Made by a program: the position numbers and the translations under genes
Virus record (IMG/VR): IMGVR_UViG_3300022391_000001
Location: 1 to 64,000 of that record
Length of the DNA: 64,000 nt
Reading direction: 5' to 3' (one strand)
Origin: a virus
Notes under the pieces: generated by a model
Database searches by the model: none
What the model was told of the DNA's origin: nothing
The model's input: only the letters and a program-made list of their open reading frames with translations
In this document: one piece after another, positions 18,357 through 24,708 of the stretch
Layout of the letters: every line of letters begins with the position of its first letter
Numbering within the stretch: position 1 is the stretch's first letter

Positions 18357-19550
18357 TTACACACCTGTGCCGATGTTCCGGACCTTGACGATGGCCGACA
18401 GCTCTTCATACTGCACTGCGACCTTCGCCGTGATGGCGTACTGATTGACGCCCTTGAAGATGTCCCTGTCCTTCTCAATCCGGACATCCCGCCCGATGCC
18501 GACCACAAAGTTGTTCTGATGCGTCAGAATCAACTGCGGATTGGACTGGTAGGTGACCTTGACGGTGTCACCGTCGCCGATGGCGCCGCCGCCCGTGCGG
18601 GCGATGGTCCCCGCCGCCGCATCCAACGTGTAGTCTGTCGTGACGACATACGGGGTTGTCGGAGCCCCGCCCAACGTGTTGGGCGTGACCACTACGTTGG
18701 ACACAGGAGCATTGGCCAAGGCCACTGCCGTGGTACCGTTGAGCACCACGTGCTCGGTCACCGACGGCTGGAAGGGCCACAACGGCACGGGCACCGCCGG
18801 GATGCCGAATGGACCATGGGAAGCTCCGCCTGCCGCCTGGTCACCGAGTGCCGTGGCGCGGGTGGACAGCTTCTCCAAGTAGATCTGCCAGAGGTCGGGC
18901 GACATGAACCACCGGAGCATCGACTTGTTGCGCCGGAATTTCGTGGGCATCGCCCGGATTGCCTGGCTGAAGATGCTCAGGCCGATGTTCTGGCCGGCGG
19001 CGTCAACAACGTTGCCGCCCTCTGACAGCTTCTGCCAACCGTCCTGCAGTGCCAGGTAAGTGTCCTTGACGTAGCCCGTCGATGAGCCACCGTCGATCAG
19101 ATCGCTCTCAAGAGCCGCTGGCCCCAGCTGGTCGCCCAGCACGTACAGCTCTTCAAGATCGTTGGCGGTCTGCGAAGCCATCATCTGGATGATGTGCTCC
19201 TCAACGCTGTCGCCCTCGATGTTGAGCTCACGGAAGTTGTCCCCGATCTCAAAGGGCACCATGATCTCGGAGGGTCGGAGCGTGACCTTGCTCGTGCTCA
19301 CTCCGCGTCGCACGCCGGGGTCCACCGCTTCGGCCTTTGGCACCGCCATTCGAGTCCCGATGCCGATCTTGTCGATCTCCAGGGTCTCATTGCGGAACCG
19401 GATCGTGCGAGCGTTCTGCTTCAGCACCGTCTCATCGATCACAAAGTCGATGAAGCGATCCGATTGGGCTGGGTTCAGCTTGCCTGAAGCTGCCAGAGCG
19501 TCGGCGGTGATGACCGCTTTCTGGACCAGCTCTTCATTCGAGATAGACAT
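18357..19550 (-). CDS. Major capsid protein (HK97 fold) with inserted Ig-like domain
   Basis: GKLNPAQSDRFID, ELNIEG, ANDLEEL..LGD, DGWQK, AMPTKFR, DVRIEKDRD; follows protease and scaffold. Confidence 0.93.
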   Translation of the reverse strand: MSISNEELVQKAVITADALAASGKLNPAQSDRFIDFVIDETVLKQNARTIRFRNETLEIDKIGIGTRMAVPKAEAVDPGVRRGVSTSKVTLRPSEIMVPFEIGDNFRELNIEGDSVEEHIIQMMASQTANDLEELYVLGDQLGPAALESDLIDGGSSTGYVKDTYLALQDGWQKLSEGGNVVDAAGQNIGLSIFSQAIRAMPTKFRRNKSMLRWFMSPDLWQIYLEKLSTRATALGDQAAGGASHGPFGIPAVPVPLWPFQPSVTEHVVLNGTTAVALANAPVSNVVVTPNTLGGAPTTPYVVTTDYTLDAAAGTIARTGGGAIGDGDTVKVTYQSNPQLILTHQNNFVVGIGRDVRIEKDRDIFKGVNQYAITAKVAVQYEELSAIVKVRNIGTGV

Positions 19551-19623
19551 GTCCAATTCTCCTTGTGTCCTAACTCTTGTTGCCTTTTAGCCCAAAGGGC
19601 CTGGCCTAGATTCAGAGCTGTCC

Positions 19624-20562
19624 CTACAGGACGCCTGACCAGAAGCTCTTTTTGACGTTGGTGTCGGTTCCGCCGTCGCCCTCCAAGGACTTGGATGGGC
19701 CGGCGGTCTTCTCGATGACCTCAACGCGCGCCCCAAGACTCTTGGCCACCGTCTGAACTTCATCCAACTTGGTGGTCAGGATCTCCTTGAGTCCTTCAAT
19801 GCTCTTGGTGAGGGCCATCGTCGTGGCCGGTCCATACACGTGGCCGGTCGGCACCGTGGTCTTGGGGCTCTCACCCTGTGGGATGGACTGCATCGACAGC
19901 TCCTTCAGCAGATCCTGAAGCGTCTCCACGGCTGCCTTCAGTGCCTCTTCACGCTTCGGCGTGAATGCCTTGGCCTTCTGGACTCCCATGCTCAACACCT
20001 CCAGGATCTTCTGGACGGATTCATCTGCCGTGTCGTCCATCGACTTCTCTGCTTTCTTGAGCGGCGGCTTGGCCCCGCCACCTGGCTTGAAGGGCATGAA
20101 TGCCTTGTCGAAGCGCTCCATGGCCTTGGTCATCGCTCCGCCCTTGACGCCGCAAGCCTTCAGCTCACTCTCAAACTGCTTGCGCATCTTGGGCCAATCG
20201 CCCTTCTCGGCGTCCATCTTCTCAGCATCTGCCTTCTCGGTGTCCACCTCGGAGGGCTCCGAAGCATTTGCTGCCTTGGCGATGCTTTCGACCAACTGGG
20301 TGACCTGCGCCATGGCCTTTTCCACGGCTTCCGTGCTGGCCACCTCCACGTTGACCTGCTCCGCGCCTTTGGCTGCGGGCTCGTTGGAAACTTGCTCACC
20401 ATCGGGCTGACCCTTGGTGACGTCCTGGATCTCATCGGCCATGTCGCCATCCTCCTGATTCAGTCGCTTGACAACGATGAACTCTTGTTCGTTTGCGGGG
20501 CTGTCCACCAAGGATACTTCCCCCACTTTCAAGTCCACAAATCTCTGCTTCGGTGCGCGCAT
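19624..20562 (-). CDS. Scaffold protein with N-terminal protease strand (EVSLVDSPAN); internal start at 20442
   Basis: N-terminal EVSLVDSPAN, then a helical/acidic body; AGGAGG before the internal ATG 20442; ends FWSGVL. Confidence 0.75.
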   Translation of the reverse strand: MRAPKQRFVDLKVGEVSLVDSPANEQEFIVVKRLNQEDGDMADEIQDVTKGQPDGEQVSNEPAAKGAEQVNVEVASTEAVEKAMAQVTQLVESIAKAANASEPSEVDTEKADAEKMDAEKGDWPKMRKQFESELKACGVKGGAMTKAMERFDKAFMPFKPGGGAKPPLKKAEKSMDDTADESVQKILEVLSMGVQKAKAFTPKREEALKAAVETLQDLLKELSMQSIPQGESPKTTVPTGHVYGPATTMALTKSIEGLKEILTTKLDEVQTVAKSLGARVEVIEKTAGPSKSLEGDGGTDTNVKKSFWSGVL

Positions 20563-20571
20563 CGGTCTTGC

Positions 20572-21282
20572 CTACCTTGGGGCATCATTCGGGGCTGCTA
20601 GCTTGACCACCCGCGCCTTGCCCCCAATGGAGAAACCTTTGATCTGGCCATCCATGACCTGCTTCCAGATCTGGTCTTTCTTGACCCGCACCTTCAGCAC
20701 CCAAGCGCCCTCTTTGACGATCTTGTTGTTGATCGTCAACCCGTGCGGGGCCACAAATGATTGGAGCAGTTCAAAGTCCTGGTTGAACTTCTTGTGCATC
20801 AAGCCCAGCTTGGTCGCCCGGTTGTAGGCGGCCAAAAAATCCTCCGCCGCTTTGCGGATGACCTGGGCATCCATGATGTCGCCCTGAGCATCTGTAACCT
20901 CGGGCTGGAGCACCACGCCGGTGACAGTTTTCTCGGTGGCATCCGCCTTCAGCACAGGCGAATACAGCCGCTTGTCCATCTCAACGGCGTCCTGCTCAGG
21001 CTCGGACTCCGGCTCCAGCTCATCCTCGGGCTCATCCTCGGGCTCGGACTTTGCCACCTTCATCGCCTGCTCAATGACGGCCACCGCCTCAGCGACCTTC
21101 TTGGCCATCATGAAGCGCTGATTCTCGTCATCGTCGCTTGGCTTCGGCTTCACGCCCGAGCCGCCCGGGAGTCCCCGGCGTGGGACCAGCTTGCCGCTGG
21201 CTGCGATGTCGTCGGCGGTGATGGTCTTGGCGACGTGCCGACCCCTCTCAGCGATAGGGTGAGCATTGCGTTTGCGTGTCAC
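20572..21282 (-). CDS. XkdF-like prohead serine protease
   Basis: VTGVVLQPEVTDAQGD, LMH, LLQSFVAP, GAWV, IWKQVMDGQIKGFSIGG. Confidence 0.88.
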   Translation of the reverse strand: MTRKRNAHPIAERGRHVAKTITADDIAASGKLVPRRGLPGGSGVKPKPSDDDENQRFMMAKKVAEAVAVIEQAMKVAKSEPEDEPEDELEPESEPEQDAVEMDKRLYSPVLKADATEKTVTGVVLQPEVTDAQGDIMDAQVIRKAAEDFLAAYNRATKLGLMHKKFNQDFELLQSFVAPHGLTINNKIVKEGAWVLKVRVKKDQIWKQVMDGQIKGFSIGGKARVVKLAAPNDAPR

Positions 21283-21891: not shown

Positions 21892-24708
21892 TCAATCGAT
21901 CTCCTCCATGTCCAGCCACACCCTATTTTTATCAAGCTCCTTGGTGACGCCGACAACTCTGAACTTGCTGCCCTTGGCCAAGATCACTTCTTGCTCCGCC
22001 TGAGCAAAGCCGGCTGAATCCTCCACTACGTTTGCGATGTCCACGCCCTTCTTTGTCTTCACTCGCATGACCACATTCATGGTCTTTGGCTTCGCCAAAC
22101 CTCCGGCAAACCCTCGGGCCACCCTCTTGCTCTGCGACCAACTAGCAAGAGCATCTTGTTCAAAGATGTATCCCCTTTGCATCAACTTTTCCACAAATTC
22201 AATGTCGAGCTGGCTGAACCCTCGCCAAACCTCCCCTTCAAATTTGGGCGCTCTCTTCATTGCGGCCACAAGGGCTTTGTGCTTCTCTTGGGCGCCCTTG
22301 GCGACCTTCGCGGCGTCACCTAGCCGATCGAAGTCCCGGATGTCCTCATACCAATCACCTTGCCACGCCCGCAGCGCCGACTTCTCTGAACTGCTCAATC
22401 CCGCTGCCCACTTCTGCTTCTTGTCATCAAACACGCTCGGTGCCGGCTTGGGCGGCGGCTCCGGCGGCGGCACCGGCTTCAGCTCCGGCGGCGGCTTGGG
22501 CGGAGGTGCCGGCTTGGGCTTGGGCGTCGTGGGCTTGGGCGGCACTTTCTTGGGTGACACTTGCGCCACCTTTGGCGGCGTCGGCGCCTTCACCGCCGCT
22601 TTGCTCTTGGCCAGCTTGGCCAACACGTCATCGACTTCGCCCAACGCCGATTTGCTCAGCAACCTAGTTGGAGCCTTGTGGGATGCCTCAATGAAGTTGA
22701 GCACATAGTCGCTCACCCTCTCCACTTTCGAGCCGCCCAGCGAGTGAGTCTGTTGAAAGATGATCTTGGCATTCCCTTGAAGTGCTCGGATCCTGATCAG
22801 AGCGGCCCTTGCGGCTGTTTCTTCAATGCCGTTGGCGTCCAATATGGCCGCCACCCGATTCAAATCCAACCCTTTGACCATAGAGTGCGTGGCGGAGTCC
22901 AATTGGATCAAGTCTTGAAGATTGTGTTCAGCCTTGGCAAACAAGAACCTGCCTGTTGGCTTGAGCGGGAAAGTCAACCCGTTGTCGATGGCGATGAGAT
23001 CTGTTCTCTTGCCCACCGTCTTGTACAGCGCGTTGAGTGTGTGGCGATCGTCATTGGCCGAAATGGCATCCAACAGGAACATCCGCCGCGCCTGAGATTC
23101 TGGGACGTTGGCCAAAGCGTTGCCGATTGTTTTGTTGGCAACCTTGGCTCCGTCCACCCACTTCTGGGCACTTGCCTTGCCGAGCCCGCTCCCGAAGTCG
23201 TGCGACACCGTCGGCGGCGTAAGAGTCTTGCCCCCAAGCTCCCGGTCCAGCTGATAGAACGCCGCCTCACGCTGGTGATAGGTCCCGCCTTTGATGCCGG
23301 TGGACTCCCGGATCAACATCCGCTCGTCATCGGCATACTTCAGGACAACTGTGGTCTTCTTGCCGTCTGGAGCCCGCAGGACAGCCTTGCTCGCTTGGTT
23401 GACACCTTTGCCCAGCTTGGTTGAAGATTCCACGTGCGACGCCAACATCCTTTGGACGATGACGTCATCCGGCGACAACTTGCCCTGAACCGGCGGAGCC
23501 GTGCCCGTCACCGGTGGCTTCGGCGCCGTCGGCGGCATCACCTTTGGCTTCGCGGGCACCGTCGGCGTCGGCGGAGTCATCGGTGTCAGCTGATCATATG
23601 AACCGATCTGCTCATCAACATCCACGTTGCACCGACAACGATAGTGATATGGCGGCAGGCTCATCCCGGCGTCGGCCAGCCCCTTCTCTTGCTTGCCGAT
23701 GGCTCCGCCGCGTTCCGCTCCGGACTTGGGCGCGATCTCCTTGACCTGCTTCAGCGATCTCCATGGGTGCAGTCGCTTGATGTCCTCGGGCTTCTTGGCA
23801 GCTAGCTCTGCGCCCATCTGCTCGGCGCCCCAACGGGTCTCAAACACAGTCCCGTTGAGATGGGCGCAGACGGGACAGATCCGGCTCCCGCCCGGGTTCA
23901 CGATCTTGTATCGGGTGATCCCGATGGACATGAAGCTGCTCATCTGCCCGTGGACGCGCCCGACGGTGGCGGCGTTGGCCACCAGCCCCTCAAAATACTG
24001 GCTGGAAGTGCCCTTGAATCCCGCCGGAGTCTTCACCGTCCCGAGCACAGCCTTCAGCCGCTCGTGCATCAGCTTGCCGGCCACCTTCCGGTCTTTGCCG
24101 GCGGCGATCATCGTGTCTCGGGTGACCTTCCCAATCTCATCGGCGACGTTCTTGGAGTAGTGCGAGCCGATCCAAAATTTCTGGTTCTTTTGGAGGGCTG
24201 CCAGAGCTTCATCGTCCACGACATCAAACGCCGGCAACAACTCCGCCTTCACCGCCGCCTTGGTGACATCCTCCACCGTCGCCAGCTTCGGCACCTTGGT
24301 TCCTGGTGACTCATCCGGCACATCATATCGAAGTTGCCGGGTGATTTGCCGATGTGCCTTCTTATGGCCAAGGATGCGTCCTAGCCTGTAGAACTGCCGC
24401 ATCTCAACCAGGAATATGTCCTCAACATCCTTGGCCCATCCGCCCATGATCTCGTCAACGGCGGATGTGATGTCCTTTGCCGGCTTGAGCTGGGACGCCA
24501 TCTTGGCCGCGATGGTGGCGGCTTGCGCCGCTCGGGCGTCCCATCGAGCTGAGAGCAGGCTCCGCAGGCGCACCTCCGCCCTCGCCATCTGCGACAACTC
24601 CGAGATCCGCAACACCTTGGTGATCATTCGGTCTGATACGCGGAGCCCGAGATACAACTTGCCGGTCCTACGCATGTGAGAGCGCAGGTTGACCACCTCG
24701 TCACTCAC
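21892..24708 (-). CDS. MuF/SPP1 gp7-like minor head protein fused to a HipA/PI3-4K-like kinase and an ADP-ribosyltransferase
   Basis: MuF: RICPVC, PPYHYRCRC. Kinase: VLK, REAAFYQLD, LDAISANDDRH..N, IAIDNG. ART: WRG, ASWS, EQEVIL. Directly after the portal gene. Confidence 0.88.
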   Translation of the reverse strand: MSDEVVNLRSHMRRTGKLYLGLRVSDRMITKVLRISELSQMARAEVRLRSLLSARWDARAAQAATIAAKMASQLKPAKDITSAVDEIMGGWAKDVEDIFLVEMRQFYRLGRILGHKKAHRQITRQLRYDVPDESPGTKVPKLATVEDVTKAAVKAELLPAFDVVDDEALAALQKNQKFWIGSHYSKNVADEIGKVTRDTMIAAGKDRKVAGKLMHERLKAVLGTVKTPAGFKGTSSQYFEGLVANAATVGRVHGQMSSFMSIGITRYKIVNPGGSRICPVCAHLNGTVFETRWGAEQMGAELAAKKPEDIKRLHPWRSLKQVKEIAPKSGAERGGAIGKQEKGLADAGMSLPPYHYRCRCNVDVDEQIGSYDQLTPMTPPTPTVPAKPKVMPPTAPKPPVTGTAPPVQGKLSPDDVIVQRMLASHVESSTKLGKGVNQASKAVLRAPDGKKTTVVLKYADDERMLIRESTGIKGGTYHQREAAFYQLDRELGGKTLTPPTVSHDFGSGLGKASAQKWVDGAKVANKTIGNALANVPESQARRMFLLDAISANDDRHTLNALYKTVGKRTDLIAIDNGLTFPLKPTGRFLFAKAEHNLQDLIQLDSATHSMVKGLDLNRVAAILDANGIEETAARAALIRIRALQGNAKIIFQQTHSLGGSKVERVSDYVLNFIEASHKAPTRLLSKSALGEVDDVLAKLAKSKAAVKAPTPPKVAQVSPKKVPPKPTTPKPKPAPPPKPPPELKPVPPPEPPPKPAPSVFDDKKQKWAAGLSSSEKSALRAWQGDWYEDIRDFDRLGDAAKVAKGAQEKHKALVAAMKRAPKFEGEVWRGFSQLDIEFVEKLMQRGYIFEQDALASWSQSKRVARGFAGGLAKPKTMNVVMRVKTKKGVDIANVVEDSAGFAQAEQEVILAKGSKFRVVGVTKELDKNRVWLDMEEID

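Follow-up and report, generated by a model that had tools for sequence, protein, structure and literature searches.

Results

Layout of the protease and scaffold genes

The IMG/VR virus record IMGVR_UViG_3300022391_000001 (105,469 bp, terminal repeats, 58.6% G+C) represents an uncultivated phage with a complete 105-kb genome, the first 64 kb of which are hereafter called the window. On the minus strand of the window, a gene for a prohead protease of the XkdF type, open reading frame 1 (ORF1), is followed by a predicted scaffold gene (ORF2) and then by the major capsid protein gene. The ORF1 chain ends shortly after its Ser motif, and the beta-strand that follows this motif on the same chain in fused relatives is found near the start of ORF2. 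This division between two genes is kept in nearly all related loci and suggests that a long form of the scaffold completes or tethers the protease in trans. The features of the locus, all on the minus strand, are:

20572..21282, minus: ORF1, prohead protease core, 236 amino acids plus TAG stop, GTG start; matches PF14550 and PHROG 3017 positions 41-157
within 20572..21282, minus: N-terminal extension of ORF1 (amino acids 1-109), then the XkdF domain (amino acids 110-225)
20608..20955, minus: XkdF/Peptidase_S78_2 domain; His163 codon 20794-20796, Ser218 codon 20629-20631
20572..20574, minus: TAG stop of ORF1, in frame with ORF2; in relatives TGA, TAA or TAG, in any relative frame
20563..20571, minus: spacer of 9 nucleotides from the ORF1 stop to the ORF2 ATG
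19624..20562, minus: ORF2, candidate long scaffold isoform, 312 amino acids, ATG at 20562, TAG stop at 19626-19624
20443..20562, minus: strand module, ORF2 amino acids 1-40, RFVDLKVGEVSLVDSPANEQEFIVVK, defined by conservation and the readthrough model
20506-20547, minus: predicted beta-strand, ORF2 amino acids 6-19; Glu15 20518-20520, Asp20 20503-20505
20451..20456, minus: internal Shine-Dalgarno (SD) sequence AGGAGG, 8 nucleotides upstream of Met41
19624..20442, minus: putative nested short scaffold isoform, 272 amino acids from Met41 (ATG 20442-20440), without the strand module
18357..19556, minus: major capsid protein gene (context), PHROG 1623, E 6e-75

A first-pass annotation of this DNA had described an XkdF-like ORF with His (LMH) and Ser (GFSIGG) motifs ending in a TAG; ORF1 (coding part 21282..20575, stop 20574-20572) lies exactly there, and the next ORF does start nine nucleotides on in the same frame. 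That next ORF had been said to begin with EVSLVDSPAN. It carries this motif, but from residue 15 and not at its start: ORF2 starts with MRAPKQRFVDLKVGEVSLVDSPAN, its longer opening is MRAPKQRFVDLKVGEVSLVDSPANEQEFIVVKRLNQEDGDM, and residues 7-24 are RFVDLKVGEVSLVDSPAN. Reading through the junction would give ..APR*ARPMRAPKQRF.., and the stop and spacer read together (AAGGTAGG) are weakly SD-like. Both ORF products are identical in the JGI/IMG contigs and in a separate Logan assembly, so the TAG stop does not depend on a single assembler.

The protease chain ends just past its Ser motif

PF14550 (XkdF-like, Peptidase_S78_2) matches ORF1 amino acids 110-225, scoring 100.1 bits (cut-off 24; E 1.2e-28) and covering profile positions 5-124 of 126, and the match was confirmed in a whole-genome scan. 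The PF14550 model itself ends just past GFSIGG. His163, in LGLMH, and Ser218, in GFSIGG, do not vary across alignments that hold 15-74 homologues (A2, A4 and A5 among them). Only 18 residues follow Ser218, with no Asp among them. PHROG 3017, a protease-scaffold profile of 402 positions, falls on both ORFs, with positions 41-157 on ORF1 and positions 267-401 on ORF2. In the hidden Markov model scan, the cut-off of PF04586 (HK97 type) was reached by none of ORF1, ORF2 and the readthrough chain.

The N-terminal extension of ORF1 has a motif of its own at amino acids 17-45 (21148-21234, minus strand), K-x-I-T-x-x-x-L-x-x-G-G-K-L-x-P-A-x-x-L-P-G-G-S-G-[VI], which is shared by the closest relatives and is followed by a confidently predicted helix (amino acids 50-77) and an acidic Pro/Glu-rich stretch (amino acids 79-97). 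The extension could function as a propeptide, in targeting or as a site of cleavage. The idea that it contains the strand in permuted form was considered and rejected, as the motif there (L-x-x-G-G-K-L-x-P-A..P-G-G-S-G) differs and there is no strand of the V-S-L-V-D type.

The strand in fused, split and permuted relatives

Scanning 1.8 billion cluster representatives in full with HMMER gave 4,789 relatives, of which the best 150 were analyzed. The chain ends at most 25 amino acids past the Ser motif in 129 of these 150. All seven representatives that continue past the Ser carry an E-V-S-L-V-D-x-x-A-N-like strand within 80 amino acids; six fit the scan pattern and one, P0100, has the variant EEVSTVPSGAN, read by eye. 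Matches found by tblastn to psiM2, psiM100, RHph_TM16, CGphi46 and BJ1 span the ORF1/ORF2 junction. The fused relative P0012 matches PF04586 with 22.5 bits (cut-off 21) over profile positions 95-160 of 165, and this match runs from the Ser motif into the strand. The claim that the strand follows G-x-S-x-G on one polypeptide in HK97-type proteases thus agrees with both the continuous-chain relatives and the P0012 match. In Firmicute phages (B83 gp09, ul36 ORF34, P0040-49) a strand element, ..AKITHVSYVDKAANKKQFFFTK.., precedes the core, and the element therefore accompanies the core whatever the connectivity, whether before it, after it or unjoined. Judged by sequence comparison, the ORF2 strand is homologous to the same-chain strand of the fused relatives.

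We collected 47 viral loci via ORF2 (29 distinct) and 80 via the protease (60 distinct). The strand motif stands at the start of the next ORF in 58 of the 60 protease-based loci, with one locus fused and two without the strand. The split was scored by the motif scan in 53 loci, one of them a false match at a locus that is nonetheless truly split, and was recognized by eye in five more. One sub-clade (loci L127-L131 and proteins P0094, P0140 and P0158) has a strand reading ..RLVDMVVEEVSLVDRAANKHRFLIVKR.., and some of its members are true fusions; at the five loci the scaffold ORF is in relative frame 2 behind a TGA, and the protease tail is longer than usual, at 23-30 amino acids.

A tblastn search with ORF2 against cultured phages gave no match, and cultured examples were found via the protease instead. 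Pseudomonas phage PAK_P3 (gp003/gp004) and the rV5-like Escherichia phage Bas51 (gp6/gp7) have the same split: a core-only protease of 139-140 amino acids, then a scaffold opening with ..AHLALVHKGQGGPAN.. or ..GIALCHKAQGYSAN... They are distant from the phage studied here, with core identities of 24-30% and a His at the position of Asp20. As this layout is the norm in a very large phage family that includes PAK_P3 and Bas51, the window locus is an ordinary member of it, and the arrangement is not special to this phage.

PAK_P3 gp003 (L132:2462-2878), the 139-amino-acid XkdF core, is annotated as 'DNA methyltransferase', as it is in many PAK_P1/KPP10-like records; the likely cause is PHROG 1530, which mixes in methyltransferase-XkdF fusion proteins. 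PAK_P3 gp004, the scaffold with the strand module, is annotated as hypothetical. Core-only XkdF ORFs of 130-145 amino acids are common among the relatives. In many relatives (P0080, P0104, P0129, P0146, P0149 and others) a core-only XkdF domain either forms the extreme C-terminus of giant proteins of 800-1,780 amino acids or lies behind methyltransferase or 2'-5' RNA ligase domains, and the protease core may there reach the head as the last part of a large polyprotein.

ORF1 and ORF2 as separate genes

The first-pass annotation had also raised the idea that readthrough of the TAG makes a full fusion, and had asked whether stop and frame are conserved in relatives. The split is conserved, but the stop codon and the frame are not. 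Relative frames 0, 1 and 2 occur 11, 18 and 24 times among the 53 scan-split protease-based loci, and 8, 9 and 12 times among the 29 ORF2-based loci, so in-frame pairs are no commoner than chance. In the ORF2-based loci the protease ORF ends in TGA (19), TAA (6) or TAG (4), and the gap from stop to start ranges from -20 to +90 nucleotides; some relatives have two stops or overlapping ORFs at the junction.

Programmed readthrough or recoding of the TAG, yielding a functional covalent protease-scaffold fusion, would account for two ORFs that are in frame and nine nucleotides apart, with a linker about as long as that of natural fusions such as P0012. However, in-frame pairs are the minority in both sets of relatives, and TGA and TAA stops, double stops and overlaps occur among them. 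TAG also follows the conserved ..SFWSGVL end of ORF2 itself and terminates 17 of 102 crude ORFs. No transfer RNA (tRNA) gene, and hence no suppressor tRNA, was found in the window or the whole 105,469-bp genome. A general recoding of TAG was tried as well and rejected: an ORF listing with TAG read as Gln merged ORF1 and ORF2 but no other gene pair, and ran ORF2 past its conserved end. Given the mixed frames, stops and gaps, the lack of tRNA genes and the TAG at the end of ORF2, readthrough is not the design, and we regard such a fusion as very improbable. Still more improbable is that the TAG arose by a sequencing error, or by a private nonsense mutation in a gene that was once fused. The in-frame arrangement is all that speaks for it; the split is at the same place in the related loci and in the cultured phages, both assemblies agree, and ORF2 has its own ATG. 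Because nearly all related phages share the split layout, the in-frame TAG between the two ORFs is a coincidence. It is thus very likely that ORF1 and ORF2 are two separate genes expressed without readthrough.

Predicted fold of the protease with and without the strand

The chance in-frame position of ORF1 and ORF2 made it possible to fold the natural readthrough segment (window 20428-20985, with Gln in place of the TAG) with AlphaFold2 as a single chain. The model has a mean predicted local distance difference test score (pLDDT) of 87.5, and ORF2 residues 6-19 form a 14-residue strand with pLDDT 88-96. Its best solved match is T4 gp21 (5jbl_B; Z 13.9, root-mean-square deviation (rmsd) 2.6 Å, 138 residues aligned), with model residues 1-165 aligned to gp21 chain 3-173, and the human cytomegalovirus protease matches with Z 5-6. 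For ORF1 folded alone, the match to gp21 has Z 8.8 and rmsd 3.4 Å over 114 residues and goes no further than chain residue 152. Confidence is lower in ORF1 alone for the first strand, the His segment (64-78 versus 90-92) and the Ser strand (71-83 versus 95-96). The models suggest that the complete assemblin/T4 gp21 fold, including its last strand, is not on the ORF1 chain alone, and to that extent they favor the earlier proposal that the strand completes the protease fold. Searching PDB sequences with the readthrough chain gave chance matches only (E 0.23).

ORF2 as a predicted scaffold gene with a probable nested start

ORF2 matches the scaffold part of PHROG 3017 (positions 267-401) with E 8e-7, and this homology together with the position of the gene points to a phage scaffolding protein. 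Its homologues (n=22, 37-80% identity) are all stand-alone proteins of about 310-330 amino acids. Their best-conserved stretch is the N-terminal 33 residues, and Met41 is invariant across all 22; a Pfam scan of ORF2 residues 1-45 alone gave no family even at E 10. The C-terminal tail ..KKSFWSGVL (19627-19653, minus strand) is present in 22 of 22 homologues, and an ORF2-like tail, ..SLWDGVL, closes the fused protease-scaffold of Bacillus phage B83. This tail is likely a capsid-binding or cleavage tail.

The AGGAGG that had been reported before an internal ATG at 20442 is at 20456-20451, upstream of Met41. A nested start was scored in relatives as an ATG 20-30 codons past the strand motif with at least five of six matches to AGGAGG in the -17 to -4 window. 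It is retained in 43 of 49 distinct loci, 20 of the 43 having a perfect AGGAGG, against a background at other codons of the same ORFs of 11.3% (at least five of six) and 0.4% (perfect). In locus L039 the SD motif is encoded by Asp-Gly-Gly-Lys codons, elsewhere usually by Glu-Glu/Asp codons, and since the motif is spelled there with different codons, selection appears to act on the nucleotides. A nested start at Met41 giving a short, strand-less scaffold isoform of 272 amino acids is therefore quite likely. The frequent split and the retained SD and ATG fit the three products suggested in the first-pass annotation, namely a protease core, a strand plus scaffold and a scaffold alone, as far as sequence can speak to it.

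A candidate third catalytic residue

Enzymes of the gp21 type have the catalytic set His-Ser-Asp (PMC5694885), and in gp21 the catalytic His and Ser are H85 and S140 (PMC12991175). Asp168, in the context ..VGVDAVWGPSAP.., is the sole Asp of gp21 in the segment that lacks a counterpart in ORF1. ORF2 has Asp20 in the context ..VGEVSLVDSPAN.., which is invariant in the ORF2 clade and retained in fused and permuted forms. His replaces it in PAK_P3 (..LALVHKGQGGPAN..) and Bas51 (..IALCHKAQGYSAN..). Asp or His at this site parallels the third residue of the known enzymes, which is Asp in gp21-type phage enzymes and His in herpesviruses. We tentatively suggest that Asp20 is the third catalytic residue, equivalent to the triad Asp of gp21. 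As the profile alignment to gp21 described below ends before the last strand, the equivalence of Asp20 and Asp168 is based on pattern.

Neighboring genes

Two ORFs upstream of the protease gene, a gene for 938 amino acids (21892-24708, minus strand) has matches to PHROGs for minor head (MuF-like) proteins and for ADP-ribosyltransferases. In the whole 105,469-bp genome, one strand holds about three quarters of the long ORFs.

Discussion

Proposed completion or tethering of the protease by its scaffold

The sequences show how the two genes are arranged, that relatives keep this arrangement, and that the strand is homologous to the one that fused relatives carry on the protease chain itself; from this we infer binding in trans, activation, two scaffold isoforms and a role for Asp20. 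ORF1 would encode a serine protease core of the assemblin/T4 gp21 fold that has the His and Ser but not the last beta-strand, and that is made without any capsid-targeting tail. ORF2 would give two proteins, a long one of 312 amino acids that starts with the missing strand and a short one of 272 amino acids that serves as the bulk scaffold. By inserting into the core, the strand of the long isoform would hold a small number of protease molecules on the scaffold for incorporation into the prohead, and would probably complete the active site, making the enzyme competent only there. That the long isoform completes or tethers the protease in trans is, in our judgment, rather probable. The stricter possibility of an obligate two-gene enzyme, in which His and Ser come from the core, the last strand and the third catalytic residue (Asp20 or His) come from the N-terminus of the long scaffold, and the enzyme is complete only when scaffold-bound in the assembling prohead, is put forward more tentatively.

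The principal alternative is that ORF1 is a self-sufficient protease and that the N-terminal hairpin of ORF2, a remnant of an ancestral fusion, serves just for docking or recognition, or as a segment that mimics a substrate or inhibits, and tethers the protease without completing or activating it. Both His163 and Ser218 are in ORF1, AlphaFold2 still folds the core alone and the model still matches gp21, and minimal core-only ORFs are frequent among relatives, all of which would suit such an enzyme. Yet the ORF2 strand aligns to a strand that gp21 holds within its own chain (residues about 153-173), is never absent where the chain of a relative continues, and moves with the core in permuted forms. 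The strands bearing His and Ser are also predicted with lower confidence when the ORF2 strand is missing, and the triad Asp of gp21-type enzymes lies downstream of the Ser, where ORF1 has none. We thus consider a self-sufficient ORF1 protease unlikely, though well short of negligible.

Several points weigh against completion of the protease by the scaffold strand. The fold evidence is a single-chain model of an artificial readthrough, AlphaFold confidence is no measure of stability, and the two AlphaFold2 models rest on different alignments. The hhalign comparison of the family profile with T4 gp21 places ORF1 Ser218 on gp21 Ser140 but stops short of the last strand, at a probability of 10.7%. 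The permuted forms do not keep Glu15, and the assignment of Asp20 comes from motif patterns and an alignment at the end of its range, so that it is uncertain by 1-2 residues. The core might still be active without the strand.

How a prohead protease is packaged in small numbers and kept harmless before the shell closes is known in a few model phages only. If the long scaffold isoform does complete the protease, the sharing of a fold, and perhaps also of a catalytic triad, by two genes would answer both questions for hundreds of phages, in parallel to the cofactor-strand proteases of flaviviruses, hepatitis C virus (HCV) and adenovirus. As PAK_P3 and Bas51 are cultured and have the same layout, the idea is directly testable. 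The results also bear on annotation: core-only XkdF genes are mislabelled, as in the case of PAK_P3 gp003, and the Pfam model stops before the strand. Scaffold genes of the family can be recognized by an N-terminal R-R-F-x-x-L-x-V-x-E-V-S-L-V-D-x-P-A-N module and a nested start. The in-frame TAG of the window locus has no special meaning. We found no paper describing the protease-scaffold split in searches on XkdF/PF14550, split or permuted prohead proteases and strand complementation, which left subscription journals mostly uncovered.

Comparison with known systems

T4 gp21 (PDB 5JBL) and herpesvirus assemblin resemble the window protease in predicted fold, in the equivalent places of His and Ser and in their role in head maturation. 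Unlike the window protease, gp21 is one chain with its own last strand (residues about 153-173, including Asp168), and its identity to the window protease is about 14%. The XkdF-type fusions (PF14550/PHROG 3017; Bacillus phage B83 gp09, Lactococcus phage ul36 ORF34, Methanobacterium phage psiM2) share the protease and scaffold parts, the C-terminal tail and the strand motif, but they are single chains, with the strand before the core in Firmicute phages or after it in archaeal viruses and others, whereas in the window the break in the chain falls after the Ser motif and before the strand. HK97 gp4 (PF04586) has the same order, G-x-S-x-G and then E-V-S-L-V-x-x-P-A, on one chain, and differs in being a complete stand-alone enzyme. 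To our knowledge, HK97 has no separate scaffold protein.

Proteases that use a cofactor strand are known from other viruses: NS2B-NS3 of flaviviruses, NS3-NS4A of HCV and the adenovirus protease (AVP) with the pVIc peptide. As in the mechanism proposed here, a short peptide of another viral protein adds a beta-strand and switches the protease on at the right place. Their folds and viruses are unrelated to those considered here, and in this phage family the mechanism is one that we infer.

The expression of ORF2 as proposed is most like that of lambda C/Nu3 and herpesvirus UL26/UL26.5, in which a minor long form with the protease and a major short scaffold from an internal start have a common C-terminus. 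Lambda C is an enzyme of the ClpP/S49 type and not of the assemblin type. In both of these systems the long form includes the whole protease by a covalent link, whereas in the window it includes just the last strand of the protease. PMC11565193 refers to a herpesvirus-type expression strategy. Protease and scaffold as one chain, which defines such nested genes, is not what is found here, as a stop separates the two in the window and in 58 of 60 relatives. The design would thus correspond to a non-covalent C/Nu3 or UL26/UL26.5, in which the covalent link is broken just ahead of the last strand of the protease.

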